From a virus, in the UHGV virus genome UHGV-1380027: a stretch of DNA of 64,000 bases; one strand, written 5' to 3'. The position numbers were made by a program, and so were the translations under genes. Under the pieces are notes generated by a model. The model saw only the letters and a list, made by a program, of their open reading frames with translations, ran no database searches and was not told the DNA's origin. This document shows positions 12,732-38,775 of this stretch, one piece after another (the first letter of the stretch is position 1; each line of letters begins with the position of its first letter).

Positions 12732-14804
12732 TTATGAGAAGTCTGGCGGAACAACATCTTCTACATACCCTTTCAGAGCAACCTGCCCCATATGCAGAAC
12801 AGTAGAATCTCTGGCGGTAACAGTGATGCTGTCAGACATTACTTGCGGGTATGCCCACACATACTGTTTTACCTCAGGGTATCTATACTCTATGGTTGCC
12901 ATGTTTCCGCAAATACATCTCCATAAAAATTCTTGGTAATTCCTGGTTGGGTCGTAGCCATATACCGGAGCAAGCTCTTTGCTAGGAACGAACCCTGCAA
13001 GGTATTGTATTTCAGACGGTTTCCAACCTAACTTAACGATAGGTATGTTTACAGACTCTTTTGCCTTTTCAATACCTCCCTGCATCACCCAATCGTAGCA
13101 CTCAGTGCAGAAGAAATCAAGAGCACCTGCTTCCTTTTTATATTGGTCAGCAAGGTTCAGTTTTTGCGTAAGCTCGGTTTCCATAATAGTGGGGAAAAAC
13201 AGTAAAGCTGTCATCTGAGCCGATGCAGCGTGTGCTTTTATTGCCTTTGAAATGGCTGCAATACGAGCGCCAAGCTTACCACGACAAAATGCTACATACT
13301 TGTCATAAACACCGCCAGTTTTAGGATCGTCAATAGTCCCAATGTCTAGTGCATATTCACCAGTCTCATCATAAAACGCCTGCTTTGTAGGGTAGTCATA
13401 AATACAAGGCTTACGAGTATCGGTATTGAACCACCACCACGGTTCACCAATCTGCATAATCACTGGTAGGTTGTTTCTCATAGCGGCTGATGCAAAATTC
13501 TTAAATACTGCAGTAAGGAAATTCATGCCCTCTTCAATGGTTGGAGACAGGAGGTAACTACAAGGCGTATAGCCTGTTTTAGCATAGTTATCGTTCCAGT
13601 CTCTCTGGGTCCATTCCAACGGACAGGCATCGCTATAAAGCTCAAAGCTTACAGACTGCATAACGTCGAAGTCATGTCGTTTGGCATTGTACATAAAATC
13701 ATCATGCCATTTATAAGCTGCAGCGTTTAGAGCTCCTGTTTTGTTTATAGACCATTGGGTTCCTGACCATGTGTAGTCATAATAATGGCTCATACCAACA
13801 TAATGGTTTATGGTTCCTGTATAGCCCAGACGCTTGATATTGCTCAACACCCTTAAAGGGGATACGTTCCACATATCGTCATATGCTGTGCAGATCCCAA
13901 CATCGTGTTCTTTCACCTGAATATTGTTAAGTTGCATCATTTTCCAGCCTGTGTCCGGCTGAAGAAGATCTAGACGCAACTCACACTCTACATTTTCCGT
14001 TCTCGGGTCTGTGCTATTACCTACCCAATCTTTAGGCATAAGTGGTATTAGAATCCTTCTCACCTGCCGAGGATCAACACCCATCATGTTGTTGTTCTGG
14101 TCCATCCCGACGCAGTCCTCGAAATCAATATGAATTTCTGCAACATTCTTATCCTCTGAGATGCTGACAGCATATTGAGCTAAAGGAACATAGATGATTG
14201 TACCATCAACAAGGTCTACAGGCATAATCATCTTTTCAGGGGTGGAGAAGTTGCTGGCATTGGTTATTGACATTCTGAACCAAAGCTTGGTGTTTCTCAT
14301 CTCGTAGTGATCATCAAATCCAATGCCGAAATGGTCATACTTGTCAACTGTTTCCCAAATGCACCCAGCCATGCCCCCATATGTTCTTGACACTAAACGG
14401 TTAATACAGCAGTTATTATCCGCAACAATACAGGTGCTTTCAGTCTGCTGTGTGGTTGTAACCCAGTATCTTGGGTGAAACATTCTCTCCTCAACTGTAT
14501 CCCAAGATATTCTGTCAAGATTCTCATCTGAAACTATTGTACATTTCGCTCTTTGTGTTCCAATCATAACCCCTTGGGAGTTTGATGAAAACTCCATAAA
14601 GAAGCTCCTTGGCAACCTGTTTGGCAATTTGTCAACAATTTCTACAGGGATCTCGATACTGGTTGCCCCAACCGGGATAGTTACATCGCCCTCAACATGA
14701 TCATAATCCCTACCCGGAACTGCAGTATCTTGAACTGTGCGGTAATGAAACCGTGCAGCCATTGTAGAGTAATCACGGTAAGGTTTAAAAACAGCTGTTG
14801 CCAT
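12732..14804 (-). CDS. tail-associated protein, possibly enzymatic
   Basis: 690 aa between baseplate-like genes and fiber genes; Trp/Tyr/Asp-rich sequence suggestive of a carbohydrate-active fold; no specific motif confirmed. Confidence 0.35.
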   Translation of the reverse strand: MATAVFKPYRDYSTMAARFHYRTVQDTAVPGRDYDHVEGDVTIPVGATSIEIPVEIVDKLPNRLPRSFFMEFSSNSQGVMIGTQRAKCTIVSDENLDRISWDTVEERMFHPRYWVTTTQQTESTCIVADNNCCINRLVSRTYGGMAGCIWETVDKYDHFGIGFDDHYEMRNTKLWFRMSITNASNFSTPEKMIMPVDLVDGTIIYVPLAQYAVSISEDKNVAEIHIDFEDCVGMDQNNNMMGVDPRQVRRILIPLMPKDWVGNSTDPRTENVECELRLDLLQPDTGWKMMQLNNIQVKEHDVGICTAYDDMWNVSPLRVLSNIKRLGYTGTINHYVGMSHYYDYTWSGTQWSINKTGALNAAAYKWHDDFMYNAKRHDFDVMQSVSFELYSDACPLEWTQRDWNDNYAKTGYTPCSYLLSPTIEEGMNFLTAVFKNFASAAMRNNLPVIMQIGEPWWWFNTDTRKPCIYDYPTKQAFYDETGEYALDIGTIDDPKTGGVYDKYVAFCRGKLGARIAAISKAIKAHAASAQMTALLFFPTIMETELTQKLNLADQYKKEAGALDFFCTECYDWVMQGGIEKAKESVNIPIVKLGWKPSEIQYLAGFVPSKELAPVYGYDPTRNYQEFLWRCICGNMATIEYRYPEVKQYVWAYPQVMSDSITVTARDSTVLHMGQVALKGYVEDVVPPDFS

Positions 14805-15490
14805 TAACCCTCCTGTCTAGTTGCGTTTACTGTAATACTTTCACAATAAATGGTTGTAGTGTCCCAATCAGGTCTTACGTCAGGAACATATAACAAAGTA
14901 GCCAGCCCACCAACCCCGAACTGATTTTCTTCCCACACTGATCCAAAGCCGAGAGCTGTAGAGTCCCCTTCAAAACCAAAAGCTTGTCCTTGCGACTCCG
15001 TAAGACGCAAATGACAAGGCAATGGCAGCATATCTAAGATTTGGTCGATAGACTGCAATATGTCAAAGCAAGTTTTTCTAATGTTTATGTCAAACCTGAA
15101 ATTGTCACCTTTCCACGTATCGAAATTATCTCTTCCGAACAACTGTCGTAAGGTGGAGATGACATCTTCGCGAGTACCACCTCTTGATGATGCTGCCTGC
15201 TGAATAATCAGCGTAGCACGAAAATCCGCGTCTGAAAGACCATTCCTAAGAATACCAAGTTGATTACCAACTTCGTCAAGGTATCTCCCGCTGGCATTGT
15301 TAAGCAATCTTCCTTCAGCCAAGCCTACCAGCATTTTATCAACATTCTTCAACCTTTTAAGGTACACGGTTAAGAATGTGACTAAATTAACCTTCTCAGC
15401 CAGAAAATCCCCAGGGAGGTAATCAAGACCTCCCTGAACAAAATCTGGCAGAGTGTGGATGTGGTTGACATCCGACTTAATCTCTGCCAT
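14804..15490 (-). CDS. baseplate protein (P2 gpI / Mu gp48-like by position)
   Basis: 228 aa immediately after a baseplate J-like gene; order matches J-I-H-G of P2-type baseplates. Confidence 0.35.
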   Translation of the reverse strand: MAEIKSDVNHIHTLPDFVQGGLDYLPGDFLAEKVNLVTFLTVYLKRLKNVDKMLVGLAEGRLLNNASGRYLDEVGNQLGILRNGLSDADFRATLIIQQAASSRGGTREDVISTLRQLFGRDNFDTWKGDNFRFDINIRKTCFDILQSIDQILDMLPLPCHLRLTESQGQAFGFEGDSTALGFGSVWEENQFGVGGLATLLYVPDVRPDWDTTTIYCESITVNATRQEG

Positions 15491-15501
15491 ATCTCACCGC
15501 C

Positions 15502-16992
15502 TTAAATAGTTTGTTGGAAAGTTATATTACTTTCGTCTAGATCAAACACCTCAGTCATGTTTGCAACAATATCGTTTGTGGTGTAAGCTTCATCAGAGGC
15601 CCCCACAGGTTTGACTTGAATTACAAGTCTGTTAAATCTGCCTATTGACACAGCAGCCGATGCAGCACCAACCAATTGGATATTGTACAACGTATCTGCA
15701 ACATCCAGTCCGTTAACAACCTGCAAAAGAGCCTCTACAATGGCATCTTTTTCTGTTGTGGAAAGCGCAGCACCTGAGTAGGTAATTCTTACATCTAGGC
15801 GGTAGGTATTTGCCTTGGAGTAATAAATCCTTTCAGTCTGACCGTCTGATGTGGTAATATCGTAGAAGATATTCCCATAAGTTCTATTTGTGCAAGCTAT
15901 GGTTTGATACAGCGCCTGACAGATATCCTCTGTTGCACCACCAAACACCACCACTTGAAACTTATAAGGTGGTATACCTTTCGCATCCGTTTTATCGGTG
16001 TTGTTAGAGAACACTCTTACTTTCTCAACACCTTTCACCTCGCTTACAGCGCTAAGGATTGCAGGACGGGTAGCTTTAGATGTCAGCTGTTTAGTGCTGG
16101 AAGCTCTTAAGCGATACTCAGAGTCTTTCTCAACATCCCTGCCCTCATTGAATCTTTCTCGGTTGGTAAGCTTGATAAATCCACTGGGAGTAGGTGACAT
16201 TGTTGTCACGGTTTCTGCCCCTCTTGACAGCTCACCAGCCTCGTTAGCGATAACATCTAGGGTGATAGTTCTTTCCCCTACAATCGGGGATACTCTGAAA
16301 TCTACCCTGCTATTAAGTCCAACTTGATAAAGATTCGAATTGTACCCTATCCACAACGTCCCTGTCAACATATCTATCTGAATTAAATCATCATTCAGCA
16401 GGGTTGTATTATCGACAATGAATTGCTTAATCTCGCCGTAAAAGCTTGGCAAATCAGAAGAGTCCAGAGCCTTATCTGTTAAAACCAGACTTTTTGTTTT
16501 GATACTTCCGTCTGTCTGGTTGGTAATTTGAAAGTTGTATTTCCCAATTCTTAGGTCTGGAGCGTTTATTCTGTGAGCAATAAGATTTCCCGCCACCTGC
16601 ACATCGTTGCTAAGAACAAAGTTGCCACTGTCCAGCGTATAAGTTTTGGAATCATAAATCATATTGTACGGCACAGTTGTGTTGATTGTCAACTGGCAGG
16701 TACCTGATGATTTAGAACGGCCTCTTCGGTAAATACCCTGTCTTCCAAGAAGCTCATCTAGGTAAATACCTTCTGCCCCGTACAGCGTCTGCGATGCGTA
16801 TACAGATGCTGCCATAAGAATAAGTTGATACTCTCGCTCGTTGAAGATAGTGGTCAGCTTATCTGCAACGGAGTTACTCTGTACGTTGAAGTTTTCGCCA
16901 AAAGCACGGATCAGGCTTTGCTTAGTTTCAACGATTAGGTCATTTAGGGTTGGTATAACGAAACCAGCCTCTGTCAATCCATACTTAGCCAC
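15502..16992 (-). CDS. baseplate J-like protein
   Basis: 496 aa; N-terminal region (YGAEGIYLDELLGRQGIYRRGRSKSSGTCQLT) resembles baseplate J / T4 gp6-family wedge proteins; gene order. Confidence 0.4.
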   Translation of the reverse strand: MAKYGLTEAGFVIPTLNDLIVETKQSLIRAFGENFNVQSNSVADKLTTIFNEREYQLILMAASVYASQTLYGAEGIYLDELLGRQGIYRRGRSKSSGTCQLTINTTVPYNMIYDSKTYTLDSGNFVLSNDVQVAGNLIAHRINAPDLRIGKYNFQITNQTDGSIKTKSLVLTDKALDSSDLPSFYGEIKQFIVDNTTLLNDDLIQIDMLTGTLWIGYNSNLYQVGLNSRVDFRVSPIVGERTITLDVIANEAGELSRGAETVTTMSPTPSGFIKLTNRERFNEGRDVEKDSEYRLRASSTKQLTSKATRPAILSAVSEVKGVEKVRVFSNNTDKTDAKGIPPYKFQVVVFGGATEDICQALYQTIACTNRTYGNIFYDITTSDGQTERIYYSKANTYRLDVRITYSGAALSTTEKDAIVEALLQVVNGLDVADTLYNIQLVGAASAAVSIGRFNRLVIQVKPVGASDEAYTTNDIVANMTEVFDLDESNITFQQTI

Positions 16993-17061
16993 GTCACTCC
17001 TCCGGTATGAAAATCTCTACAAGGTATTTTACCAAATTTTGTAACAATAGTCAATCTGAGC

Positions 17062-20000: not shown

Positions 20001-20930
20001 TTTGTCGAAGGAGGCTTCAGGATAGATCTTAACCTCACCGCAAACACAGTCCTCACTCAGTGTCATTGTTGCCGGGCCATAGTATGCACCTACCAGCAGA
20101 CCGTATTTGCCAGCTACATAGCTAAGGTCTGCACCACAAGCCTTCAGCATTTCTGCCATAATACTTGCTGGTGCTTCGTCCATGTCGAACTCACCATTAA
20201 TAGTGTAACGGCGCTCACTGGTTCCGTCCGCGTTTTTTACAGCCTCGTCGCATATGTTGGCAGCTTCCTTGAAGGACTCCCAGTTGATGGTTTCGTCAGG
20301 ACATTTAAGGTACGTTCTTAGATAGTCCAGAATCACCAAGGCAGCGTTGTTGGTATACACCTCTTTACTGATACGAGGATCATAACATTTTTTACCAACC
20401 TTGACAAGTGTAACGTTTGGCAACCCAAAAGGAAACTTGTTAGGGTCAAACTTAAAGCTGGCACGTAGCCAACTGATCCCTCTACCTATCATGTCTGGTG
20501 ACCACGAAGGGCAGTGTGTGCCCATGAAAGGATCAGAGGTTTTCCTGTCGTTATGCAACTCCCACGATACCAAATCCCCATACGAGGAAATAGGATTACC
20601 GTCGATAAGTATATCTTCTATACCTTCCAAGGGATGATTGGCAAGAACAATAGCACAATGAAGGGTTCTGTCCCTGTCCTGCTCCAAAAACGCAAGCAAT
20701 CCAGATGTGCGTGTCTTCCCATACACTACAGAGCAAGGTGCAGCAGAAGATCTGAGAAGCTTTTGTCTATCTTGTGGACTTCTGTAAGATTTGTTGCCTT
20801 CGAAAATCTTATCAAGGGTTCTGGTGGTAACAGTGTTCAGGCTGTCAGCCAGAGCTGCCTTGGATGCGTTCCAGTCATAGCTCGAAGATCTTGCAGAAGC
20901 AACGATGTTATCAATCATTGCAATTGGCAT
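17097..20930 (-). CDS. lambda gpJ-like central tail fiber / host specificity protein
   Basis: 1277 aa; segments GYFAITLIPH, KIYYWYIRTTNAFGSSQFVE and KYVAGIQLGMEGSGGQVQSYFMVSANNFAVYNP align to conserved lambda J blocks as recalled; internal repeat region. Confidence 0.65.
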   Translation of the reverse strand: MPIAMIDNIVASARSSSYDWNASKAALADSLNTVTTRTLDKIFEGNKSYRSPQDRQKLLRSSAAPCSVVYGKTRTSGLLAFLEQDRDRTLHCAIVLANHPLEGIEDILIDGNPISSYGDLVSWELHNDRKTSDPFMGTHCPSWSPDMIGRGISWLRASFKFDPNKFPFGLPNVTLVKVGKKCYDPRISKEVYTNNAALVILDYLRTYLKCPDETINWESFKEAANICDEAVKNADGTSERRYTINGEFDMDEAPASIMAEMLKACGADLSYVAGKYGLLVGAYYGPATMTLSEDCVCGEVKIYPEASFDKRSNTITGRFTSPTKGYSETDFPSVFVPEWVEKDGERKIIDIDYRFVTSPYQAQRVSAIFLRRARAGRIIEVTCNMRGFKFKPGRYVTMDLPSIGIVGQEMRVLEWEFTKKGGVKVKLRQDAKEWNDATGQLPDSGDVDIPISPSGVAQPQNFRYSVLQAGEVTHGVLAWDNVGTYAQNIVQVRKNGEIIWTAQTVEQFVRVEGLTKGSYTATVVATSYKGGVSPEAYCEFNIQAPEAPVSVEVKQGYFAITLIPHSRDLASVSTQYDFWTSGMTRLPDTSDATVTSKATRMGVGSTWTSEGLQNDKIYYWYIRTTNAFGSSQFVECAARCYTSIEDLMPQIDAEFKKTETYKELMSTLDSSIEEVENRVTELNKYMDGRVDEAFQQLGDRIGAVVAETTQKFEDVNGNITALDRKLVAAQNKFTNDLNTESGRLASLIETTNKATTDLLNKKTEALDEKLVAAKGELVEQISGVESGYLAGDKTLDGKINTQRTELDASILSTNQATVDLLNRTSETLDQKISQTNATVSKNYTTLDGKITTAKTDLNTLIANTNKATTDLLNQKTSALSEQITSARGEISTNKQAIKDLDGKLTSTKTALDATISDTNKATVDLINGTASAIRQELAVAKQEIIDDVGDVSELRAAVATTSKAVTDLEGKVNAQWGTKIQVDSAGNKYVAGIQLGMEGSGGQVQSYFMVSANNFAVYNPGNGTATLAFAIKNNQAFLKDAFIENGTISSAKIAQEISSNNYDGNGYHKYGWYINKNGHAQFMDVWVKGNINASAGNFTGAVNATSGTFRGDVYANNGSFRGTIDATGGTFRGRVEASVIRADQFEGAIVAHRTYGDCPPVYNSQQGVCRWRWRYVDNVSGQGKNVTFFFKLNGTLSGSQLNVWIAGHQILAGKKYGNDNNGMCAVGITGLGEQTIDIIVEIYTPRSSVTGVTISCPTVIVSRSNSSFQGPWNESHG

Positions 20931-21367
20931 TAATACCTCCAGACATCAACAACGATAGAATCTTTCATGTCGAACATAAAGATCCCTTTATCACCTTTCG
21001 CCCAAATCTGGTTGTTCCAGAACACACCAGCGGTGAGCCCGTTCAGACCTTCGAAAATAACAATATCACCACGCTGAACCTGTTTAGGAGTATCCAGTCG
21101 AGTCAAAAAGAGATCAAAAATAGTAGGCAGATGTGTGGTTTTGAAACGAAGCATGCACCATCTCTTGCTTTCCAACTCTGTTTTATACGTTCCTTCAAAG
21201 TTAGAAAGAAAATCTGTTCCGTATTGGGCATCAACACACTTAGCCGCAAAAGTGCAGCAATCGTGGAATCCCCATTCAAACGGGACGGTGACTTCTTCGT
21301 CAAACACTTTCCACAATCTTTCTTGCCAGTCCACTAAACGAGGGTGTGTGCTCATTAAACCTCCCAA
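20930..21367 (-). CDS. tail tip assembly protein with NlpC/P60-like domain (gpK-like)
   Basis: 145 aa; EWGFHDCCTFAAKCVDAQYG resembles the catalytic Cys region of the lambda gpK NlpC/P60 domain; immediately upstream of the J-like gene. Confidence 0.4.
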   Translation of the reverse strand: MGGLMSTHPRLVDWQERLWKVFDEEVTVPFEWGFHDCCTFAAKCVDAQYGTDFLSNFEGTYKTELESKRWCMLRFKTTHLPTIFDLFLTRLDTPKQVQRGDIVIFEGLNGLTAGVFWNNQIWAKGDKGIFMFDMKDSIVVDVWRY

Positions 21368-21921
21368 ATGATCGGGCGGCTTGCCACCTGATCCACATAT
21401 TTAAAAAATCTGTCATTATCGTTTCTTGAGCTATGGCTCTCCTCTGTGTATCGATAAGGAAAACCTCTTAACCAGCTGTTGAAGATGGAAGATATGGATA
21501 TGGACAAAGCACTATTCTCCCCTGTCTGAATAGCCATGTCTGTTATAAGGCCGTCAAACAAGCCATTGGTTGTAACAGGTAAACCATTCTCCATAGCTGT
21601 GATATACAACGTGGCACGACAACCCGAATACTCCGTCTTCAGCAGATCACCTACATACTTGGGATCAAACCCGTTCAATGTTGCTACCACAGACCCAAAG
21701 TTGGTGGCATCTTTCTCAGATACAGCAGTCAATGTTGCTGATCCACCTATCCCTATAAAATGCTGCCCCTCAATCACCACAACACCAGTGCCTGAGCACA
21801 CCCTGACAGTTCCTGTTGGCAGCTCTAGCTTTGCGGCAATTAAGATCTCAACACTATCAAGCTCTAGCTTTTCAAGAAATAAATTATCTAATGGCGCTCT
21901 TATCATCTTAGAAATCCTCAA
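21355..21921 (-). CDS. minor tail protein
   Basis: 188 aa, co-oriented and overlapping neighbours in the tip-complex cluster; assignment by position only. Confidence 0.3.
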   Translation of the reverse strand: MRISKMIRAPLDNLFLEKLELDSVEILIAAKLELPTGTVRVCSGTGVVVIEGQHFIGIGGSATLTAVSEKDATNFGSVVATLNGFDPKYVGDLLKTEYSGCRATLYITAMENGLPVTTNGLFDGLITDMAIQTGENSALSISISSIFNSWLRGFPYRYTEESHSSRNDNDRFFKYVDQVASRPIIWEV

Positions 21922-22501
21922 AAAAGTTGATAACTATATTATCACCTTTCTGCATAGCATCAACCTTTTGCTTAATCTTATAGAGATCCCTGATATGAAA
22001 TCTACCCTTCGGAGATTGAGTTATTATCTTCATAGTATCCCCTGCGGCAATAGGTTTTCTAAGTCTTGGTGATATGTTTATAACAGCTGCCCCCACACCA
22101 TCACTTCGCACTGAGGATGTCACAACTTTCAACTCATCATTGACAGATATTTTATCCCCAGCCCTGACTATATCTCTGTTCGGTTCCCAACCAACCGTCT
22201 TCAAAAAATCGTCATTACCAGTTGGTCCTAGAGCGATTGGTTCATTGGAAGTAACTGAATGACCATAAGCCTTGATAAGAAAAATGTTTCCATCTTTGTA
22301 AACCTGATCAACAAAACTTTTAAGCTCCAATAGCTGGGACTCACTTATATTGGAAACCGTCAAAGTTCCTTTCCAGTTGGGCGTGGCATAGGTTACTTTT
22401 TGCGTCTTACCTGTAAACGGGCTTTTAAACGTAACAATATCTGCCAGCAACTCCAATCTAATATCTGGAAGATATCTAGGTCTTTCCCATAAAAACATCA
22501 T
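21908..22501 (-). CDS. minor tail protein
   Basis: 197 aa, first gene of the tip-complex cluster after a terminator; assignment by position only. Confidence 0.3.
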   Translation of the reverse strand: MMFLWERPRYLPDIRLELLADIVTFKSPFTGKTQKVTYATPNWKGTLTVSNISESQLLELKSFVDQVYKDGNIFLIKAYGHSVTSNEPIALGPTGNDDFLKTVGWEPNRDIVRAGDKISVNDELKVVTSSVRSDGVGAAVINISPRLRKPIAAGDTMKIITQSPKGRFHIRDLYKIKQKVDAMQKGDNIVINFFEDF

Positions 22502-22560
22502 GCCTCCAGGTTAAACAATTATGATAGTTATTTTACCAGATTTTAAGTTAATACGCAATA

Positions 22561-22590
22561 CAAACAAAAAGCCCTCGCCGAAGCGAGGGC
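22561..22590 (-). terminator. rho-independent terminator
   Basis: minus-strand hairpin GCCCTCGCTTCGGCGAGGGC followed by TTTTTGTTTG; located after the 22597-22929 gene. Confidence 0.65.
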
Positions 22591-22596: not shown

Positions 22597-22929
22597 TTAA
22601 AGTGCTTCCAAGGTAGATACTGATGGGTCGAACATGTTCAACCTTATCGGATCTACAATTTTTCCGCTTTTAGAGATGATATTTTCTGCATCTTCGTCTA
22701 GAGCCAGAACGTTGACATAAAACAATTCACTTTTCTCGCAAACCGGGTAGACAACCATGTTGCCAAACTCATCCTCGGCCTCATAAGTGTCTTCAGTTTC
22801 TGTGTAAATGAACCCGACAACCTCTACAAGAAGGGTGTTTTGCAACACCTCATTCTCGTAAAAGCCGATTTCGTCCATGAAACCGTTAAAATCCTCCCTA
22901 CCAGTAAACCCAAGGGTAAAAGTATTCAT
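22597..22929 (-). CDS. hypothetical acidic protein
   Basis: 110 aa, highly acidic; stop/start overlap with the upstream 1198-aa gene suggests coupling. Confidence 0.3.
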   Translation of the reverse strand: MNTFTLGFTGREDFNGFMDEIGFYENEVLQNTLLVEVVGFIYTETEDTYEAEDEFGNMVVYPVCEKSELFYVNVLALDEDAENIISKSGKIVDPIRLNMFDPSVSTLEAL

Positions 22930-25900
22930 TATTCAACACTCTCCATCATAAGCTGGGTGTCGGTCAATGCAGAGTTCCAAACTCTTACATCTTTAATATG
23001 ACCAAACAAATGTCTTTCACCTGTCGCCGTTTGACCTCCGAGACGGATGAGAGCGCCTCCTGCCAGGAATTCCCAAGAAGATTGCGTTTCCGTACTCACC
23101 AATCCGTTAGCAAAAGAGCAGGTTTTACCGTCATCTTTTATCCTGAACCCAATTTTCAATTTACGTGTTTTAGCCATCTCATAGACACGTCTGTTTGAAC
23201 CGCCAATATCACAATATGGATAACCATCTTCTGCAATATTTGCTGCAGAGCCAAATCCCATGATAAATGCAGCACCTGATTGGTGGCCCTCTGTATCAAT
23301 AACCCTAGGAGCTGCGTTAGGAGCTTTTCCCCAACCTCTCCAGTTGGCATCCACCGTAGCGGCGATGGTGAACGGTCTAGGTGCTAAATTATCAGTCATT
23401 GGGAATTTACAAAGGTCTGCTGCCCTAGTCACTGGTGAAGACCCTGTAGGGATAAACGAGGACTCACAAGATCCTAACTCGAACTGAGGTATTGCGACGT
23501 CAACCCAATCCCCTACGGCATGTTGAGAACCATCCGGTGGGGCAATCTGGAACTGGCACCCAATATTCATGTCAGAGTCCACTGCCTCAAACGTAGCAAC
23601 AACTCTTATCCAAGCAGGTCCGGCTGTTTGCCATCTCTCAGCTTTTACTTTAATTCTCCCAGCTGCACCACCTGTTGTTTTAACTTCAAGTGTTGACAGG
23701 TTAACATAGGCATCACCCTGGAATACTGTGGTAGATCCGTTATACATGTCGAATCTTACACGCAGTCTCTGGTGAGCTTTACCACCTCTTGCAATAATAG
23801 ACCCAGTACAAAATTTCTCAGCGCCTGTTACATCTGCACCACGGGTGGCTGGAACTGTAGCCAGGTTTAACGCTGTTGTTTCTACACCGGATACGTTGCT
23901 TACTGTAAATCTTGCACCTTTTGTTCCGTTAGTGTTTGTTACAGTGTTACCGACCGTAATCTGTGACTGGGCTCCCCATTTGCTCGGGTCTTCACTGTTA
24001 AGCATCAGATTTGTCCTTTGACCTTCAATGAGCAGCCCATCTCTTTCGAAACGTGGTTGGTTTGCTTGTGCAACAGCCATAACACCGCGCTTAGTGAAAT
24101 AGGTTGCGGTAGAAGGTCTGGAGAAGATCATCTCCCCCTCACCTAACACAGGTTTCAGGTTAGAGGTTAAAGGTAGCCACAGGTCTGGCATAACTGGGGC
24201 AGTTGTACTTTCTGGGAAGCTAGTTCTCTTCCAAGGGCTCCAGTTCATTCCACTTCCAGTGTTATTATAATACCTTTCCCACGTCCCACCAAGATACATT
24301 TTATATATCTGGACACACCCAGTACCCTCGTTGGCAGAGTTTCTAAGCACGATCAGCGTACCAGCCATCTGCTGTCCTGGTGGATAGTGTCTTTCCGCTG
24401 TGGCGTTGGCATTTGCCTCTTGATGGTAAATACCTTCGCGATCAGCTTTGTAATCGTTAAGGTCACTAGTACCCAACCCTTGACCACGGTGCTGAATAAC
24501 TTTGTTCCACGCTCTGTGGTTACCCTGCTCTATGGAACGGGTGTACAGCTGATCTAAACGGCCTGCCATCTGGAAAGCATAGTTTCCAGAAAATGCCACA
24601 GACAACCCGCCAACAACCATTGAACCTTCAGGTCCGTTGACATTGCCAGCCAGTATTTTGGACGGATTATTATTCCCGAACTGATTGTTCCAATCTGCAC
24701 CAGTATGACATACAAAACCACCCGGTGCTGAGAAAGTACCATCTTTGTTGAAATTGTAGAATCTGTGAGCAGAACCTACAACATCACGAACAATAACTTG
24801 ACCAGCTTCTGGAGTAGATCTGAACTCTGCCTGGCCTTTGAGGCCAGCACCATTGCCGCATTTAGAGGTAAATGTACCGTTAGTCAGATCCTCTGTCCCA
24901 TCTGATGCACACTGGAATCCTGCATTAGAGAATAACGCCTTTCTAGGACTGCTGTAGCACAAATAGTCAATACCGTCTGCCCATAGCTCGACTTTCGGCA
25001 TGTTCATTTTGCTCATCACTGCATAGCGTTCAGCAGTGCCTATATAGTGCCACTGTGTGCCGCCGCCAGTGTAGAACCCAGAGGTGCCTTTGAAGTCAAC
25101 AATAGGTCTGGTGTTAGTAATGTTATCTCCAAGAACAGCAAGATTCAAGTCAGCTGACTGGAGAGGTGAAACGAACTTAACACCGTCCTGATTGTTTGTT
25201 ACAGAGCCGACCTGATAATCTTGCTCTCTGGTAAACACTTCGACAACATTTCTACTCGCGTATATGCTGACAGGGAAAGCACGAGCCTCCACATAGAAAG
25301 CAACATACTCTTGTTTACCCCTTGTTGGAGCAACCATCCCAAGAATTGCTTTTTCATTCTGGTAGAAATTTACTACCCCGTAGAAAGAGTCTCCTCTGTC
25401 TGTCCATCCTCCAGTTCTATAGTGACACTGTAAGGTAGCGCAGTTCATAGGGTCATTTCCAGATGACGATCTGGTAACTATGGTAATATCAGTGCCAGTT
25501 GCTGGAGCATAGTACGGATCTGTTCTAACGATGATAGGGTAGTATTTCCCATCTTCCATTCCTGCGGTTCTTGGCAGTGTTAAGAAGTCTTTTACACCTG
25601 CTGCTATAGGAACTTTGAACAGATTCTGAGCATCTGCTAAAGTTGTAGCCCCTGTGCCGCCTTGCTCTATAGCAAGAGGTTGCCACGAAGCTGTTTGTTG
25701 GTTCCACATACCCCAACGGCCTGTTGCATCAAGCTGCAAGTACCCTGCTGTGTTTAAATCATCTCCGGCACGGATAACTGTTCTTGTTGGGTTGTTTGCC
25801 TCCAGGTGTTTAAATTCGTCACGAAGTGCTATTCTTTTTGTTGTTGCTACACCGTTGGTTACTGCAATGGTATACATGGCTCCGGAGGTAGCGCCACGGA

Positions 25901-26525: not shown

Positions 26526-26560
26526 TCTTTCTCCTGAAAGGGGGCAAACAGCCCCCTATG

Positions 26561-29158
26561 TTAAAGGTACAATCCACGGTATTGAGCATAAAGTCCCAGA
26601 CCGCGAAGGATTTCGCCAGAGTGATAGCCTACCGGATCAGAAACTGCCCAGCAGCCGTTTAAAACATTATCCCCGTTAATGAAGTGGTGCTTTTGCAGTA
26701 ACTTCACACAGGCTTCTACAACAATATCTATTTGAGGTATTGTCTCTGAATACCCGCAAAGACCTAGCCAGCAGCAACCTGCAAGCCATTCACCTACCAC
26801 CCACATCCTGTCTCCTCTGTCCTGATAAGAGTATCCTCCAGAGGTGTTAAAGTCTGTAGGTAGATTTCCTGAATGAGATGACCGGAATCTGTTGAGGAAC
26901 CATGCCCATTTCTGGCAGAACAGGAACAGTCTTTCATCAACAGGTTCTTTATGTTTCTTGAGCTCATATATTGTGCGGCACGCAGCAACAAAAGATCTTG
27001 ACTGGAGCTTAGAGTTATCTACCATCTCCCACCAACCAGTCAACCCTTCATTACCTCTCTGCCATACATAACGTGAGGCAACTGGACCCTCTGTCTTAAA
27101 TGTATTGTTATACCAGACTTGAGAGTCATACAGAAAGCCTATTGTATTTGACAATCTATGGCGGTCTATGTTTTCTGCCCCCATGCAGTAGACTGCTGGG
27201 TATTGCATACCAGGATAGGGCCAACTTGGCCTTTCCTCTAAGAGATAATTTTCCTTATCTATCACCTTTCCAGCAGGGAACACACCCGGCGTGTGCCTGT
27301 ATGCACCTTGCTTGTAGTTTCTGACATAACAATCGCCAACCTTAGCGGTTGATTCTGTCTTGCTTGCCATCCATACACTAAACCAAATTAGGTAAGCATC
27401 TCTATCTGCAACATAAAATTGCGGTAGCGTGTTGACGCAATACAGATCAAACAAGCCATTACCTATCTGCCTGTCGCTCAGACTGAAATCTACAGAGGTG
27501 ATCCCTTTGGTGTTAGCAAAGAAAGGTTTAATCTCCTCTTCGGTGTGATGAGGTTGTGTAGGGTCTAGTTTAAAATCTCCCAGAGTAAGAGTTTCTGTTA
27601 TCCATTGTCCATTAGTGGCATATAGATCAGCATACCATAACCAACGGTCTTTGTCAAGAAATTTGACCCTTACCATCTCATCATCTGATCGATAAGTTAC
27701 TGAGTTTAAAGAAATCTCTCTTCCAAAATTGAAAGTTACCTTGCCTCTTACTATGTTGCAACGGGTGAAGTTGTCAGAGTGGTTGTAAATGTCGGTATCA
27801 TACTGCATACTAACACTAGCGCCACCGCTTACGGCAATGTTTTCCTCTTTTGGCAAGAGATACGGGTTACCGTCTTTACCAACCACCTCTACAAAATCAG
27901 TAACCTTGGCAACTGTTTCTGTTACCTCTGCCCCTCCAAAAGGTACACCTATTCTGTACTGTTTTTTGTTATTGTTGCCATCATTAAGGATGAAATGTGG
28001 CTGGAACAGAACCCCTTCTCCTCCGAAATTCATAACAATTTCAGCATCTCTGCCTATTTTGTATGTAGTCCCTTTTTGGATTATTTCGCAAGGCTGGCGT
28101 GCGTTCATTCTAAAATTGATATATCCGTCACTATCCCTACTCATGACAGGTACTGTTCCTGCAACTAGACAAGTACCATCTGTGAACGGGGCCTTAATCA
28201 ACGTGGTCTTTCTGAACAGCTTGTCGTAGGCATTTATATCACTAAAATTAAGCAACTTATTGTAAGACTGCTTAAACGCGGTGTAATACTTTTCCTCACC
28301 TGTCAGGGTGTAGAGTTGATAACAAGCGTCACACCACATCTCTTCCCCATCTAACTCTGGGGCTTGATTGTCTGCAACCACGTTTATAGGATTTACAATT
28401 ACAGGGGATCCAGCAGGTATCACCGATCCGCCCTGCTCTTGAGGCAATCTCACACAATAGGTAACCTTGTGGTTGCCTGTAACACCCTTATCTTGCAGTT
28501 GGATTGTGCCGAACTCTGCAGACGTATGACCACTGTCGGCTATGCTACCGTTGGCCCAATAGCGGTTACCATCCCATGCTATATACCACTCAACCAACCA
28601 ACTTAATCCGGAAGTTGTCCAATTAGGATTAGCATCTGTGCCGCCGTAAACATCAGAGTCTACAGTGTTTCTTCCTAAAACACCGTTATACGCCTGAAAA
28701 GCCTTGTCCAAGTATTCTCCCCATGTCGGGGATCCTGCTGGGATTTTTCCTCTACCTTTGTTAAAAGACACAACCACATCTTTAAACCCACCATGTGATG
28801 GAACTCCATCTGTGGATAACGGGTAGTGGGACAATCTTTGCATTTTACTTTCTACTGCATATACTCCCAGAAGATGACTGTTGTAGGCTTCCCAAGCCTC
28901 TTTGGCCCTGTCCAGATAAAAATCGCTTTTTGATGCCCTGTATGCCTCAATGTATCCCAGAATCAACACAGCTTGGGACTCATGCATTGCCCAATCATTG
29001 TTTATCTTACTCCCTGACCAACCTGACGCTATAAGTCCATCCTGGTTTACCAGTTTGTTCTGTGTAGGGAGATTGGTAATACCTGTGTTGTTATCGAGGC
29101 ACTTCCTGTGCCCCTCGATCATCTGAAATACGTTATCAATGTTGTGTTGAATACGCAT
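26561..29158 (-). CDS. tailspike-like protein, putative glycoside hydrolase
   Basis: 865 aa, Trp/Tyr/Asp/Asn-rich composition typical of carbohydrate-active enzymes; located among tail genes. Confidence 0.4.
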   Translation of the reverse strand: MRIQHNIDNVFQMIEGHRKCLDNNTGITNLPTQNKLVNQDGLIASGWSGSKINNDWAMHESQAVLILGYIEAYRASKSDFYLDRAKEAWEAYNSHLLGVYAVESKMQRLSHYPLSTDGVPSHGGFKDVVVSFNKGRGKIPAGSPTWGEYLDKAFQAYNGVLGRNTVDSDVYGGTDANPNWTTSGLSWLVEWYIAWDGNRYWANGSIADSGHTSAEFGTIQLQDKGVTGNHKVTYCVRLPQEQGGSVIPAGSPVIVNPINVVADNQAPELDGEEMWCDACYQLYTLTGEEKYYTAFKQSYNKLLNFSDINAYDKLFRKTTLIKAPFTDGTCLVAGTVPVMSRDSDGYINFRMNARQPCEIIQKGTTYKIGRDAEIVMNFGGEGVLFQPHFILNDGNNNKKQYRIGVPFGGAEVTETVAKVTDFVEVVGKDGNPYLLPKEENIAVSGGASVSMQYDTDIYNHSDNFTRCNIVRGKVTFNFGREISLNSVTYRSDDEMVRVKFLDKDRWLWYADLYATNGQWITETLTLGDFKLDPTQPHHTEEEIKPFFANTKGITSVDFSLSDRQIGNGLFDLYCVNTLPQFYVADRDAYLIWFSVWMASKTESTAKVGDCYVRNYKQGAYRHTPGVFPAGKVIDKENYLLEERPSWPYPGMQYPAVYCMGAENIDRHRLSNTIGFLYDSQVWYNNTFKTEGPVASRYVWQRGNEGLTGWWEMVDNSKLQSRSFVAACRTIYELKKHKEPVDERLFLFCQKWAWFLNRFRSSHSGNLPTDFNTSGGYSYQDRGDRMWVVGEWLAGCCWLGLCGYSETIPQIDIVVEACVKLLQKHHFINGDNVLNGCWAVSDPVGYHSGEILRGLGLYAQYRGLYL

Positions 29159-29159
29159 C

Positions 29160-29828
29160 TTAGATAGCTCCTGCGATGATCAATGCCCCGTACCAAGTTA
29201 GTCCATTATCATATGTTTCCAACTTGAAAATGTCTGTTGCACCAGCTGTAAATGTTAGGATAGGATCTCTTCCGTAGGCCCATTTAACATTGTCAGGCCA
29301 ATAAACTTTGTTACCACCAGAGGTCTGCGTTATGCATACAGTTATAGTTCTTGCCACTCCGTCGAGCCCTTCTGTTTGATTTTCAAAAGAGATTGTGGTA
29401 TTTGAAGTGAGCCGAACTTTAAACGTGTCTGCAACGTCAAGATCCATGTCAAGTTGACCACCAATAGAGCCGTAATCAACTATCCTACCTGAAGAAGTTG
29501 CAGCAAGCTCTCCAAAAACAGACCATGCTTTTGCAGACACACCTCCGGCACCCTCTACAGTGGAATCTGGGAGGATTATTTTAGGATAATCTCCATTCCA
29601 TGTGTAGTAGCGCTTAGTTTCCGGATCATAAGCAAAATCCTTCTTGCTCTTAAGATAACCGCCTTCTGTGAAATAAACTATTTTAGTAATGCTAAGATCA
29701 TTGACAACATCATCAATCTTAGCCTTTCTTGTCCCGTCAGTCTGGTTGACAACCAAGAAGTCATCACTCAAGACTGTTTCTGCATCTTCAAGATCTGGGA
29801 TTGGTATTGTAGGATAAGCTACAGCCAT
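29160..29828 (-). CDS. tail protein sharing an N-terminal anchor module with the 1198-aa tailspike
   Basis: 222 aa; N-terminus (DDFLVVNQTDGTRKAKIDDVV...FTEGGYL...DFAY) parallels the N-terminus of the 22929-26525 product. Confidence 0.4.
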   Translation of the reverse strand: MAVAYPTIPIPDLEDAETVLSDDFLVVNQTDGTRKAKIDDVVNDLSITKIVYFTEGGYLKSKKDFAYDPETKRYYTWNGDYPKIILPDSTVEGAGGVSAKAWSVFGELAATSSGRIVDYGSIGGQLDMDLDVADTFKVRLTSNTTISFENQTEGLDGVARTITVCITQTSGGNKVYWPDNVKWAYGRDPILTFTAGATDIFKLETYDNGLTWYGALIIAGAI

Positions 29829-32636: not shown

Positions 32637-33548
32637 TTATTTTCCGTTAACTTTGTTGTAGTTTCCCTGCTCAGATGGGACTATGGTAGAAGGTCTTCCA
32701 TATTCCTGATAGTACCAATCCGCAGCAGATTGGGTGACACCGTTTTCATCTGTCCACATCATAGATTTGTATGGCTGCCACTCTTCTGCGGCATTTGTGG
32801 ATGCAGTGTCTGCAAATGCCCCTGTGTCCCTCTTGTTACCTACGTTACTGCCATTCTTACAGTCGTTGACAGCACCTTTTTGCTGGGTCTTGCCTACTTT
32901 CTTAGGGTTGCTGTATACAGTTGCATTAACAACCTTGTTCAAGTAGAATGTGCGGAACTCTGTAAGTTCTACATCAAACACCATCGCAGCACCTTCACCA
33001 ACAGACTTGTTGGCAGAAAGGCTGGTTATAATGTAGTTCTCAAGGAGTCTTTCCTCGGTAACCAAAGAAACCAACTGGCGCTTATTAATGATCTCAGTCA
33101 AAGCCTCCAGTGCAGCGCCTGGTCGCATAGATGCTGCAGGATTTTTAGAGTCAGTATTCCTGTCAATGTAGTTTTGCTCATAGATTATATGTGGTGATGT
33201 ATTTACCCTACCAGTAAAAGAAAATACACCATCTTTAATTACAGCGTGGTCTGACAGGGTAGATTTATCTTCCACCGCAAACCCAGTTTTATCAACAGAA
33301 TGTTTGAAAGAGTAGTTCTCAACCTGATCGAAGATAATGGCAAGATCGTTAGTAAAGTTTTTACCCTTCATCTCTATATTGCGACCACCATAGTTAAGAC
33401 CGCTGACAAACATAGTGTACTTTACATCGCTTTCAGTTTGCTGCTCTGCCTTTTCAGCCTTTGGAGATTTAACCTCTTGAGGCTTGTACAGGTCTTTTTC
33501 ATCAACTATATTGCTTGGCATAACCTCTCCAGGACACTCCGATACCAT
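32637..33548 (-). CDS. tail protein (distal tail or DNA-circulation type by position)
   Basis: 303 aa, first gene after the tape measure gene. Confidence 0.3.
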   Translation of the reverse strand: MVSECPGEVMPSNIVDEKDLYKPQEVKSPKAEKAEQQTESDVKYTMFVSGLNYGGRNIEMKGKNFTNDLAIIFDQVENYSFKHSVDKTGFAVEDKSTLSDHAVIKDGVFSFTGRVNTSPHIIYEQNYIDRNTDSKNPAASMRPGAALEALTEIINKRQLVSLVTEERLLENYIITSLSANKSVGEGAAMVFDVELTEFRTFYLNKVVNATVYSNPKKVGKTQQKGAVNDCKNGSNVGNKRDTGAFADTASTNAAEEWQPYKSMMWTDENGVTQSAADWYYQEYGRPSTIVPSEQGNYNKVNGK

Positions 33549-36018: not shown

Positions 36019-36267
36019 TTATCCTCTCCTGCGCTTAGCTTTCGCAGCAGCTGCGGCAGCCTTCTGCTCCCGCTCCATTTCCCTGTTTTGGACGGTATCT
36101 AGGAATTCTTCGATATCAAGATACTCACAGAGCTTCAGGAAATACGCCATATCTGCAAGATTTAGCGATTCAAAATTTTCCCCTTTGAAATTCTTGAGCA
36201 CCCTGCACCAAAGAAAGTCGAACCAGTTAAGTGAGCTGTTCTTGGCTGCCCACTCACTGGCCCTCAC
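36019..36267 (-). CDS. tail assembly chaperone, -1 frame extension (T part of a G/GT pair)
   Basis: Frame open from 36393 to 36019 in the -1 frame relative to the 36279-36752 gene, overlapping its 3' end; the listed ORF start here is GTG. Confidence 0.5.
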   Translation of the reverse strand: MRASEWAAKNSSLNWFDFLWCRVLKNFKGENFESLNLADMAYFLKLCEYLDIEEFLDTVQNREMEREQKAAAAAAKAKRRRG

Positions 36268-36278
36268 AACAACCTTGC

Positions 36279-36752
36279 TTATTCCTGCTCTTCCGGAGTC
36301 TGATCCAGATTGTTCACCTGCTGGATCATACCCATCTGCTGTAACATCTCCAGAAGGCTTCCTAAACCGTCTTGTGTGAAAAAACAGCCGTAGTTAACCT
36401 CCAGAACCTTACCTGCCAGCTTAATCATCTCCAGCAGATGCCCTGCAAACACAACATCGGGGTTAAGCTTATCCACACCATCCACGGTAATATCTTCGAA
36501 CAAGATTTTAAATAACTCTTCAATAGAGCTATCATCAAGTTCTTGGAACAGGTAAGCCAGGGCTGTAGGAAGTACCTCTGCCATATTCTGACCACCTGAG
36601 AGAATAGATCCGCCGACAGCTCCTAGCGGGACAGCTACAATCTTACCGATTTTAGGCATGTTTTTCATTGCTTTCATCGGTCCCCAGTGGGTGATCACAA
36701 AGTTGTGCCCTGCTAAATCAATCTCTGTTGTAGGTCTAAAGTTTATAGCCAT
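36279..36752 (-). CDS. tail assembly chaperone (G-like)
   Basis: 157 aa directly upstream of the tape measure gene; contains the slippery site and is followed by the -1 frame extension. Confidence 0.55.
   Translation of the reverse strand: MAINFRPTTEIDLAGHNFVITHWGPMKAMKNMPKIGKIVAVPLGAVGGSILSGGQNMAEVLPTALAYLFQELDDSSIEELFKILFEDITVDGVDKLNPDVVFAGHLLEMIKLAGKVLEVNYGCFFTQDGLGSLLEMLQQMGMIQQVNNLDQTPEEQE
36378..36384 (-). promoter_or_regulatory. candidate -1 programmed ribosomal frameshift slippery heptamer (T TTT TTC)
   Basis: Minus strand reads TGT TTT TTC ACA (protein CFFT) in the chaperone frame; heptamer T-TTT-TTC fits X XXY YYZ; the -1 frame stays open to 36019. Confidence 0.45.
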
Positions 36753-36897: not shown

Positions 36898-36914
36898 TAT
36901 ACTAAAGTGTGCCC

Positions 36915-37388: not shown

Positions 37389-37398
37389 CTAGTCTTCC

Positions 37399-38775
37399 TT
37401 ATTCAGTCATTGCAACAGCATTGGTGGATTTAGAACCAACTTTGTCCAGAAGGACGTTGATCCGGATACGAACGAAGTGCAGGGCGTTGTTATACACCAG
37501 TTCTACTTTCACACCTTCCAGAACACGAGCAGCCAACTGATTGGTTGGGATCTCTGCACGTTTAGGAACTGTGATGATCGGGTCGTAGAACACATTGTTG
37601 TCTTCGTCAAAACCTGTCAGGATCGCGCCATTCTTAATGCCAGTATTGATCGGGTTGTTCATCAGAACAGACTTGATAACCGGAAGATCATCATCAGACA
37701 TCTTCATGCTTAAACCCATATTGGAGCGGCGATGCATGTACCCAAACATGGATTCTTCAGATCTGAACTTGATCCAGTGTGCAAAACGAATAGCGTCTGC
37801 ATACTGACCTGAAGCACACTTACCTTCCCAGAAAGCGCCAACACCGTTAATCATTCTGTAGAAGTTAACGTGGTTTTCCCAAATCGCCATACGCTGAGTT
37901 AAAGTCAGAGATGGTGCAATCACACCGGGCATCTGTTTTAAGTGCAAGCTGTCACCGTAGGACGGATCGTTGGATGCCATAGCACCTATGATACCACCCT
38001 CCGGGAAGTCCTTATCTGCACGAGGATCGTACATGCCAACACTGTCATATTGTGCAGCTTTCAGTTTGGTAGCGATGTTACTATCTTTGCCAGTCACATC
38101 TTCTGCAGTAGAGTAGACGTGCAGCTTGTAGTTGGCCTGAGCCCACTTAGCACATGCTTCAATGTCGGTGTGGTCTTCATGGCACAGGAAGTACCAATTG
38201 TCCCGCTCAGCATTGATCTTATCAACTACTGTAGAAGGTTTTTCAGAATTGGCGATATTCTTGATTGTATAGTTACCAGTATGATAACCAACAGTGCAGT
38301 TACCAGTGATGGTGATAACACCTTCTTCAGCCTCTACAGTGATACCGTCCAAATTATCATCTGCTTCGATTTTAGTCTTCATTGACTCTGCAATCTGAGT
38401 TGCACCTGTTCCACCAGAGATAGGCACTATCAGAGAGGTATTGTAGCCACCTTTTGCAATAGTCATTACGACATCGGTATCGGCTGCGGCAGCAATACCT
38501 TTAAAGTCTACAGTGGTTTTTTCTTTGGCCTGTCTGCCGATCATAACATATTGTGGAGGGAATACACCACCAAAAGCTTTTGCTGCAAACTCATACGCTG
38601 CAGAGCCTTGTGCGAAACCATCTTCCACCATCTGATCCAGCTCAGCATATACGCGAGCTCGCTCAGTAAAGTTGTTGTGGATAGCGATGAACAGGGGAGT
38701 TTCGAAACCTACAGTGTCAATAGGTTGGGTTCCGAGGTTAACTGTAACATCTACCACTTTATCTAAATATGGCAT
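37399..38775 (-). CDS. tail sheath-like / major tail protein
   Basis: 458 aa directly upstream of the tube-like gene; strong RBS; could instead be a large siphovirus-type tube protein. Confidence 0.45.
   Translation of the reverse strand: MPYLDKVVDVTVNLGTQPIDTVGFETPLFIAIHNNFTERARVYAELDQMVEDGFAQGSAAYEFAAKAFGGVFPPQYVMIGRQAKEKTTVDFKGIAAAADTDVVMTIAKGGYNTSLIVPISGGTGATQIAESMKTKIEADDNLDGITVEAEEGVITITGNCTVGYHTGNYTIKNIANSEKPSTVVDKINAERDNWYFLCHEDHTDIEACAKWAQANYKLHVYSTAEDVTGKDSNIATKLKAAQYDSVGMYDPRADKDFPEGGIIGAMASNDPSYGDSLHLKQMPGVIAPSLTLTQRMAIWENHVNFYRMINGVGAFWEGKCASGQYADAIRFAHWIKFRSEESMFGYMHRRSNMGLSMKMSDDDLPVIKSVLMNNPINTGIKNGAILTGFDEDNNVFYDPIITVPKRAEIPTNQLAARVLEGVKVELVYNNALHFVRIRINVLLDKVGSKSTNAVAMTE

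Follow-up and report, generated by a model that had tools for sequence, protein, structure and literature searches.

Phage tail modules are usually thought to be swapped between like architectures, and receptor-binding proteins to evolve by domain swaps. Among the described systems closest to the genes considered here is the tail tip of Queuovirinae siphoviruses (CAjan gp15–gp18; 9g gp65–gp68), where four genes after the tape measure gene make up the tip that closes the axis of a non-contractile tail. The CAjan genes behind the tape measure are gp15 ('distal tail protein', 194 amino acids (aa)), gp16 ('tail protein', also 194 aa), gp17 ('putative peptidase', 144 aa) and gp18 (J, 1040 aa). The baseplate of the Rhodobacter gene transfer agent (GTA), which Bardy et al. 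reportedly described in 2020 as consisting of a distal tail protein, a hub, an NlpC/P60 peptidase and a megatron, is a tip of the same four-part kind, distant in sequence and also axial on a non-contractile tail. Here we describe a module with the Queuovirinae set of genes in the UHGV virus genome UHGV-1380027, a stretch of 64,000 nucleotides called the window below. The order of the genes, their approximate sizes, the J Pfam domains and the DUF6950 domain in the third gene are all the same as in the Queuovirinae, and yet the module stands in a contractile-tail operon, where a fibre gene and a terminator precede it and the tape measure is about 11 kb away with nine genes between. We lean towards the reading that this is a captured siphovirus tip module, co-opted in the contractile tail of the genus Vequintavirus and mounted off-axis as an accessory fibre.

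The likeness to the Queuovirinae tip extends to every gene of the module. The 197-aa protein matches CAjan gp15 (32% identity, E 8e-30), the 188-aa protein gp16 (40%, E 3e-48), the 145-aa protein gp17 (45%, E 9e-47) and the 1277-aa protein gp18, the J protein (54%, E 0). Four such genes stand straight after the tape measure also in 9g, Serratia phage Tlacuache, Providencia phage PSTCR4, Pseudomonas phage PSA-2T, Roseobacter phage CRP-821 and Vibrio phage K473, and variants of the arrangement are found in Halfdan, in K394 (in part) and in the T5-like Chester (fused hub). All of the module carriers that we inspected, other than the window phage, have siphovirus-type tail operons with the module after the tape measure. 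By homology and synteny, we conclude that the four adjacent genes are an intact tail-tip module of the Queuovirinae/9g type.

The preliminary description of this DNA proposed a contractile core and a P2/Mu-like baseplate combined with a lambda J/K-like tip. The combination is borne out at the gene level and now extends to four genes, and the J and K-like genes do lie within a tip module, but its closest relatives are the Queuovirinae tips and no likeness to lambda M, L or I was found. What lambda shares with the window phage is the core of the hub, the pair of Ig/FN3 domains and the fibre domain of the tail tip (lambda J 218–990), as well as the position of gpK just upstream of J, where the window phage has a protein with an NlpC/P60 fold. 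The module holds no counterpart of gpI (no Lambda_tail_I Pfam match and no fifth gene) and no Phage_min_tail or Phage_tail_L match for gpM and gpL; direct hhalign comparisons of the 197-aa protein with gpM and of the 188-aa protein with gpL gave probabilities below 1%. Lambda gpK combines a JAB/MPN domain with a catalytic NlpC/P60 domain, whereas the 145-aa protein has no JAB/MPN half by Pfam and no canonical catalytic His. Neither the LamB-binding Ig_GpJ_C domain nor the N-terminal FNIII-A domain of lambda J was detected by Pfam in the 1277-aa J. Since several of its defining features were checked and found absent, the module falls outside the strict lambda M-L-K-I-J family, and on these comparisons it is nearer to the Queuovirinae tips (CAjan, 9g) than to lambda.

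The largest protein of the module consists of hub domains, two Ig/FN3 domains, a long coiled coil, a tail-tip fibre domain and, at the C-terminus, one more domain, and PHROG 31 ('central tail fiber J') spans its residues 143–1118. In a tblastn search with its first 465 residues, siphovirus J proteins were found at 57% (Seuratvirus CAjan), at 50% (Nonagvirus 9g) and at lower identities; the search also hit a Mesorhizobium phage 'megatron'. The family profile of this N-terminal part aligns to lambda J 218–805 in hhalign (probability 99.3%, E 2.5e-20). An AlphaFold model of residues 63–430, with a predicted local distance difference test score (pLDDT) of about 80–96, has the T5 hub pb3 as its best Foldseek match (E 2.9e-24, TM 0.65–0.68), followed by the DT57C hub, lambda J (E ~1e-17) and then the GTA, T1, Chi and JBD30 tips, while Mu gp44-type myophage hubs rank far behind these siphovirus tips. 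The match to the GTA virion chain 6tba_8A is strong (E 6.6e-15). T5 pb3 itself differs: it is one polypeptide, located axially in a siphovirus tail, and has no long coiled-coil fibre. From these matches, we conclude that the 1277-aa protein is a full-length J, hub and central fibre together, and no mere fibre fragment. The lambda gpJ-like blocks noticed earlier are thus upheld by Pfam, profile and fold matches, and are parts of something larger. Since the N-terminus is of the T5 pb3/lambda J hub type, the phage encodes a second, siphovirus-type hub beside its own 333-aa hub. The coiled coil of this J is about 237 residues longer than that of CAjan and carries four TN(K/Q)AT(T/V)DL(L/I)N motifs at residues 751, 813, 864 and 918; Tandem Repeats Finder and self-BLAST gave no significant repeats in it beyond this recurring 10-residue motif. 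The C-terminal 180 residues are 90–97% identical within the genus and merely 30–36% identical to the Queuovirinae J ends, and their conservation within the genus suggests a conserved receptor.

The second gene may supply the rest of the hub. Pfam gave no match for the 188-aa protein, and a PDB search with the single sequence was empty. With its family profile, the best PDB matches are the N-terminal residues 21–177 of T5 pb3 and the DT57C hub (E 0.013–0.017), and three of the nine family members weakly match PF09931, the N-terminal attachment domain of a baseplate hub protein. These matches suggest that the protein resembles the N-terminal part of a hub. Because this weak match to pb3 21–177 is found beside a J with a pb3-type fold, genes 2 and 4 look like a split pb3-type hub, which we put forward as a suggestion. 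The protein ends in ...IIWEV, without the C-terminal GSKKDAPxFxY tail that is kept in seven siphovirus homologues, and a locus search with it returned near-identical Vequintavirus contigs only.

For the third protein, of 145 aa, a first homologue search gave six matches, two of them chimeric, and an exhaustive search of representatives was then used. The AlphaFold model, made with an alignment of 58 sequences, has a pLDDT of 94.4. Its top Foldseek matches are all NlpC/P60 proteins: MepS/Spr (E 8.5e-5, TM 0.56, probability 1.0), RipD, LytE and a Trichomonas NlpC. The sequence profile of the family likewise places NlpC/P60 enzymes first (E 0.007–0.9). The Asp-Cys at the position of the catalytic Cys is invariant in the 58 DUF6950 family members, and the column of the catalytic His holds Thr in the 145-aa protein (GLTAGV vs GRHVGI); RipD, among its top fold matches, is a non-catalytic NlpC/P60 protein. 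An hhalign comparison of the DUF6950 family with lambda gpK gave a match of 26 columns around an RGD motif at a probability of 14%, and because this match is weak, the NlpC/P60 relation is taken from the fold search. The 145-aa protein may be no conventional peptidase, its NlpC/P60 likeness being one of fold. Of the earlier call of an NlpC/P60 gpK-like protein, the NlpC/P60 fold stands; the JAB/MPN half and the catalytic His of gpK do not.

For the 197-aa product of the first gene, searches of Pfam and PDB gave no match, either with the single sequence or with the family profile, and we call it a putative distal tail protein from its PHROG 1302 label and its position alone. In comparison with the related phage EmilHeitz, the synonymous divergence (dS) of this gene is 0.81 and that of the 222-aa fibre-adaptor gene (29160–29828, minus strand) is 0.52, while neighbouring genes are at 0.15–0.3; nucleotide identities to EmilHeitz are 88% and 91% for the two genes, respectively. 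The 197-aa gene also has the lowest GC content (0.389) among the genes compared. The raised dS of the two genes and the low GC content of the 197-aa gene hint at allele exchange within the genus.

The tail into which the module is set is a contractile one. The region from 14804 to 38775 is 98.4% identical to Escherichia phage vB_EcoM-ECP26 over its full length (100% coverage) by megablast, and 93–98% identical to more than 100 rV5-like phages. On these identities, the window is an rV5-like myophage of E. coli, genus Vequintavirus, subfamily Vequintavirinae. The rV5-like phages are a commonly isolated E. coli group, and some have been tried for biocontrol of E. coli O157. Phage rV5 itself is about 94% identical to the window phage. 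Every gene of the tail region is on the minus strand, and the genes named in the preliminary description are present where it placed them. The sheath protein matches the solved sheaths of phiTE and phi92, and the proteins earlier called baseplate J-like (496 aa) and gpI-like (228 aa) match phiTE Wedge 2 and Wedge 1 and phi92 gp145 and gp146, respectively. The tube-like, chaperone, tape measure and spike assignments are supported by Pfam matches (Table). The base open reading frame (ORF) of the chaperone, of 157 aa, lies at 36279–36752 and contains the slippery heptamer T TTT TTC at 36378–36384; an open −1 frame extends from 36393 to 36019 and continues into an 82-aa ORF, and the heptamer sits within the 115-nt overlap of the two frames. 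The slippery site and the open −1 frame fit the usual chaperone frameshift.

The sheath and both wedge proteins are closely homologous to those of phiTE and phi92, and tube initiator, plug, hub, spike and sheath initiator stand in the same order as in these phages. In phi92, this order is gp135 (tube initiator), gp136 (plug), gp137 (hub), spike, gp139 (sheath initiator) and gp145/146 (wedge) (PMC13450770), and the contractile set of the window phage keeps the gene order of this solved baseplate, with the 303-aa tube initiator, the 225-aa spike and the 238-aa protein as the positional counterparts of gp135, the iron-loaded phi92 spike and gp139 (PMC13450770). The 333-aa hub has no Pfam match and is 58–59% identical to its Seunavirus and Mydovirus orthologues; the tube protein is 80% identical to its Seunavirus orthologue. 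From these matches, the region encodes a complete, canonical contractile tail with a simple baseplate of the Mu/P2, phiTE/phi92 type. No J-type hub-fibre is reported in the phi92 and phiTE papers (phi92: PMC13450770).

The module is not shared by the sister genera. In Salmonella phage SPLA5a (Seunavirus) and Raoultella phage Ro1 (Mydovirus), the contractile-tail and baseplate genes, starting with sheath or tube and ending with wedge and short fibre, are all kept at 33–80% identity, and a tblastn search of their 33-kb tail loci found none of the four module genes. The N-terminus of J gives 117 tblastn records at ≥95%, followed by a gap down to siphoviruses at <60%; the relatives of the wedge protein, by contrast, form a continuum (60%, 51%, 43%, 32%). 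The module therefore appears to be an insertion specific to Vequintavirus relative to the sister genera scanned. Given its absence from these genera and the gap in J identity, the most economical reading is that an ancestor of Vequintavirus captured it from a Queuovirinae-like siphovirus.

If the module was captured in this way, the question is where the phage would carry it. In phi92 and phiTE, the tube initiator, the hub, the spike and the tape measure's C-terminus fill the tail axis (phi92: PMC13450770), and the orthologues of these axial proteins are intact and conserved in the window phage. Because the axis is taken by the phage's own hub and spike and the module comes without a tape measure or a tube gene, the J trimer would not be the axial tip and would stand off-axis. 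Horizontal transfer of the module into the ancestor of the genus would have been followed by co-option, with the J trimer placed off-axis on the baseplate or the fibre network and the products of genes 1 and 2 probably acting as a proximal cap or adaptor. Together, the split hub and the ring protein would make up a bulky head at the proximal end, redirected to dock on the baseplate or another fibre. J would serve as an additional long fibre whose conserved C-terminal domain binds a conserved cell-surface structure, and the DUF6950 protein could be an assembly factor, as lambda K is, or a virion-borne subunit that binds or cleaves the cell wall, as in GTA baseplates. Identity to CAjan falls towards the proximal end, from 54% in J through 45% in the DUF6950 protein and 40% in the hub N-terminal-like protein to 32% in the ring protein, and this gradient and the lost tail of gene 2 are what would be expected if the proximal contacts had changed. 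That J reaches the virion is indicated by rV5, whose gp37, the 1279-aa J orthologue, is among 19 proteins identified in purified virions, with a strong tryptic peptide, GYSETDFPSVFVPEWIEK, that lies within the hub part (PMC3606486).

The following observations may serve as leads to a docking site and are offered as no more than leads. Wedge 1 (228 aa) carries at its C-terminus about 19 extra residues, DVRPDWDTTTIYCESITVNATRQEG, that are missing from the Seunavirus and Mydovirus orthologues, and this extension may serve some genus-specific fibre as its docking peptide. In cryo-electron microscopy maps of phages Bas49 and Bas54, unassigned density is attached to the head of another fibre (PMC12143355). 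A bolder form of the proposal, in which a whole siphovirus tip (ring protein, split hub and J trimer) has been domesticated as an off-axis 'mini-tip' organelle, possibly in six copies per virion, is in our judgement possible, though we hold it tentatively and would not quite put it at even chances. Such a mini-tip may correspond to the thin fibres, 70 nm long, that rV5 occasionally shows, or to the unassigned density in the Bas49 and Bas54 maps.

Several results weigh against the off-axis proposal and keep us from holding it more firmly. The Bas49 and Bas54 structures located three other fibre types and did not place the J fibre (PMC12143355), and no docking partner for the module was identified on the baseplate. 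The virion data for rV5 gp37 are thin (four peptides, 4.2% coverage, one of them strong), and the three small module proteins are not among the 19 found in this proteome of low depth (PMC3606486). The 197-aa family gave no significant hhalign match to T5-type Dit or to the phage's own Dit_like tube initiator, and the likeness of the 188-aa protein to a hub has marginal scores (E 0.013, 0.011). The direction of transfer, from siphovirus to Vequintavirus, is inferred from distribution.

The alternative that survives best, although we think it unlikely, keeps the module as a working structure and places it on the axis or elsewhere: J could form a cone around or beyond the spike, an alternative tip in some particles, or a collar or neck fibre. 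The normal seat of a J hub, as the fold matches indicate, is an axial six-fold ring, the protein in the Dit position has been retained, and the absence of the J fibre from among the baseplate-proximal fibres of Bas49 and Bas54 would be accounted for. The axial forms of this alternative are opposed by the intact tube initiator, hub and spike, axial in phi92 and phiTE, and by the absence of any tape measure or tube gene from the module; a neck location has no support of any kind. We therefore prefer to place J off-axis.

A second alternative, which we consider quite improbable, is that the module is a passenger, a recent, non-structural or decaying insert without a role in the virion. It is a terminator-bounded insertion that the sister genera do not have, its small proteins went undetected in rV5 virions, and gene 2 ends without its conserved tail. 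Selection and expression signals speak for the opposite. All four ORFs are intact in 117 genomes, and the ratios of nonsynonymous to synonymous divergence (dN/dS) relative to EmilHeitz are 0.025, 0.007, 0.077 and 0.026 for genes 1–4, compared with 0.00–0.065 for core tail genes. The module is under strong purifying selection, and its function has been retained. J peptides are found in virions, and, as described next, the module has its own copy of a late-promoter motif and signals for coupled translation.

The only two gaps of about 100 bp in the tail stretch border the module, and each contains a terminator hairpin and then the motif TGGTAAAATA. The two flanking hairpins are the two best intrinsic terminators on the coding strand. 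The one ahead of the module closes the preceding fibre unit and has the best terminator-like score between 14.5 and 30 kb; it has the form GCCCTCGC-TTCG-GCGAGGGC followed by five T. Exact copies of TGGTAAAATA are found four times in the window, at 17025, 22529, 36795 and 40320, where about 0.1 would be expected by chance from the sequence length; all are intergenic and on the minus strand, preceding the wedge genes, the module, the chaperone and a 156-aa head-proximal gene. SPLA5a has TGATAAAAT at the equivalent site before its wedge gene. We take TGGTAAAATA to be a candidate −10 element of the late promoters of this phage group, and the module to be a putative separate late transcription unit with a terminator on either side and its own promoter motif. 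At the junctions of genes 2 and 3 and of genes 3 and 4, TAATG overlaps preceded by GGAGG indicate coupled translation.

Less credible still is domain shuffling alone, in which the 1277-aa protein would be an ordinary side fibre with borrowed J Ig and fibre domains, and there would be no module. Pfam and direct comparison to lambda J align the protein only to residues 666–849 (two Ig domains) and 845–990 (tail-tip fibre domain), and 'lateral tail fibre' is a frequent public label for it. Pairwise comparison to CAjan J, however, gives 54% identity over residues 48–758, the hub part included, and 50% over 869–1124; the profile alignment to lambda J begins at residue 218, the model of the N-terminus shows a hub of the T5 pb3/lambda J type, and the three upstream genes are homologous to and syntenic with siphovirus tip genes. 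As for the possibility, raised in the preliminary description, that the tail is in truth non-contractile, with the 458-aa protein a large tube protein, the baseplate J- and I-like calls wrong and the J/K genes a normal tip, we give it next to no credence, for nothing besides the siphovirus-type tip genes favours it and it is refuted by the matches of the sheath (E 1e-144) and of both wedge proteins to solved myophage structures, by a tip module that is not behind the tape measure and by electron microscopy of rV5, in which the tail measures 121 x 17 nm extended and the sheath 44 x 20 nm once contracted (PMC3606486).

This phage group is well known, as are its contractile tail and its many fibres. 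Individual labels found in public records include 'tip attachment protein J', 'central tail fiber J', 'lateral tail fiber protein with fibronectin type III domain' and 'cell wall hydrolase'. COG4733 and Mu-hub-like HHpred matches were noted for gp37 in the rV5 paper (PMC3606486), and the RBPseg paper describes the J fibre class as having an N-terminal region "common in central tail fibers" (PMC12143355). In a full-text literature search, we found no description of the four genes as a complete siphovirus tip module, of their genus specificity or of a separate late unit. A complete four-protein tip, second hub included, appears to have moved from non-contractile to contractile tails. If true, an entire multi-protein tail organelle, more than a domain, would have been relocated across architectures. 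This could account for part of the multi-fibre adsorption apparatus, dubbed a "nanosized Swiss army knife" in relatives of phi92, and for which genes make which fibre, and it would offer a natural experiment on the ways in which a hub/Dit assembly is redirected to another docking site. It also calls for caution, in that the automatic labels 'tip attachment protein J' and 'distal tail protein' in these myophages would be right on homology and misleading on position.

Table. Coordinates (in the window) and supporting matches of the tip module, its flanking signals, the contractile-tail genes and the adjacent fibre genes
Feature	Coordinates	Strand	Basis
Module gene 1, 197-aa protein in 'distal tail protein' position	21908..22501	-	PHROG 1302 'distal tail protein' E 1.3e-49
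Module gene 2, 188-aa ORF (likely start 21906, 183 aa), hub N-terminal-like	21355..21921	-	CAjan gp16 match
Module gene 3, 145-aa ORF (likely start 21355, 141 aa), DUF6950	20930..21367	-	Pfam DUF6950 E 1.8e-33
Module gene 4, J-type protein, 1277 aa	17097..20930	-	Pfam Ig_J, Ig_J_second, Phage_Tail_Tip
Intrinsic terminator hairpin GCCCTCGC-TTCG-GCGAGGGC + T5, closing the preceding fibre unit	22571..22590	-	Best terminator-like score in 14.5-30 kb
TGGTAAAATA promoter-like motif, 28-37 nt 5' of first module gene	22529..22538	-	Exact copy
Intrinsic terminator hairpin straight after J stop codon	17070..17091	-	Terminator scan, sequence
TGGTAAAATA promoter-like motif ahead of wedge genes	17025..17034	-	Exact copy
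Tail sheath, 458 aa	37399..38775	-	Pfam DUF3383; PDB phiTE sheath 9cb9 E 1.1e-144; phi92 gp130 E 9e-48
Tail tube, 157 aa	36915..37388	-	Pfam KPP10_Orf10; tail tube annotation in EmilHeitz
Tail assembly chaperone with -1 frameshift extension	36019..36752	-	Pfam Phage_TAC_15 E 1.9e-23
Tape measure, 778 aa	33628..35964	-	Pfam TMP_3
Tube initiator, 303 aa (Dit-like ring protein of the myophage itself)	32637..33548	-	Pfam Dit_like E 2.5e-22
Baseplate plug/spacer, 126 aa	32245..32625	-	Pfam Pam3_gp18 E 2.9e-18
The myophage's own baseplate hub, 333 aa	31244..32245	-	EmilHeitz annotation and position only
Central spike, 225 aa	30567..31244	-	Pfam phage spike N-terminal domain E 1.4e-9
Sheath initiator (probable), 238 aa	29838..30554	-	Position; 68-70% identity to sister-genus orthologues
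Baseplate wedge, 496 aa, Baseplate_J	15502..16992	-	phiTE Wedge 2 9cuy_T E 1.6e-158; phi92 gp145 E 2.2e-56
Baseplate wedge, 228 aa	14804..15490	-	phiTE Wedge 1 E 8.6e-67; phi92 gp146 E 5e-23
Fibre genes: 222 aa (Tail_spike_N), 865 aa, 1198 aa (Tail_spike_N; variable allele)	22929..29828	-	Pfam, PHROGs, EmilHeitz annotation
Small protein, 110 aa, PHROG 1361 (function not known)	22597..22929	-	Accompanies 1198-aa fibre allele

Between the spike region and the module lie the fibre genes. The 110-aa gene next to the module was considered as a fifth member of the tip and rejected, being linked to the variable 1198-aa fibre allele: it is found in about 35 of some 117 Vequintavirus records and otherwise beside side-fibre genes of ~46-kb siphoviruses. 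Its product is perhaps a chaperone or an adhesin for one 1198-aa fibre allele. Within the 1198-aa variable fibre (22929–26525, minus strand), residues 545–677 are 40% identical to the CAjan side tail fibre gp20, and on this identity the segment is a second, independent tie between the window myophage and the Queuovirinae. On the other side of the wedge genes, a 690-aa fibre (12732–14804, minus strand) has a Calx-beta domain together with the N-terminal and TIM-barrel domains of an N4-type 'non-contractile tail sheath protein' (E 6.7e-80). The Seunavirus and Mydovirus tail loci hold no such fibre, and this deacetylase fibre has been tied in the literature to ECA/NGR recognition.

Among the GenBank entries related to the window are 18 records in the MG0656xx series titled 'Campylobacter phage' (host Campylobacter jejuni) that are 94% identical to it over 24 kb, and these are likely to be mislabelled or contaminant isolates. 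The GC skew of the window turns from negative to positive at about 54 kb, which fits a switch in the direction of transcription where the block of structural genes ends.

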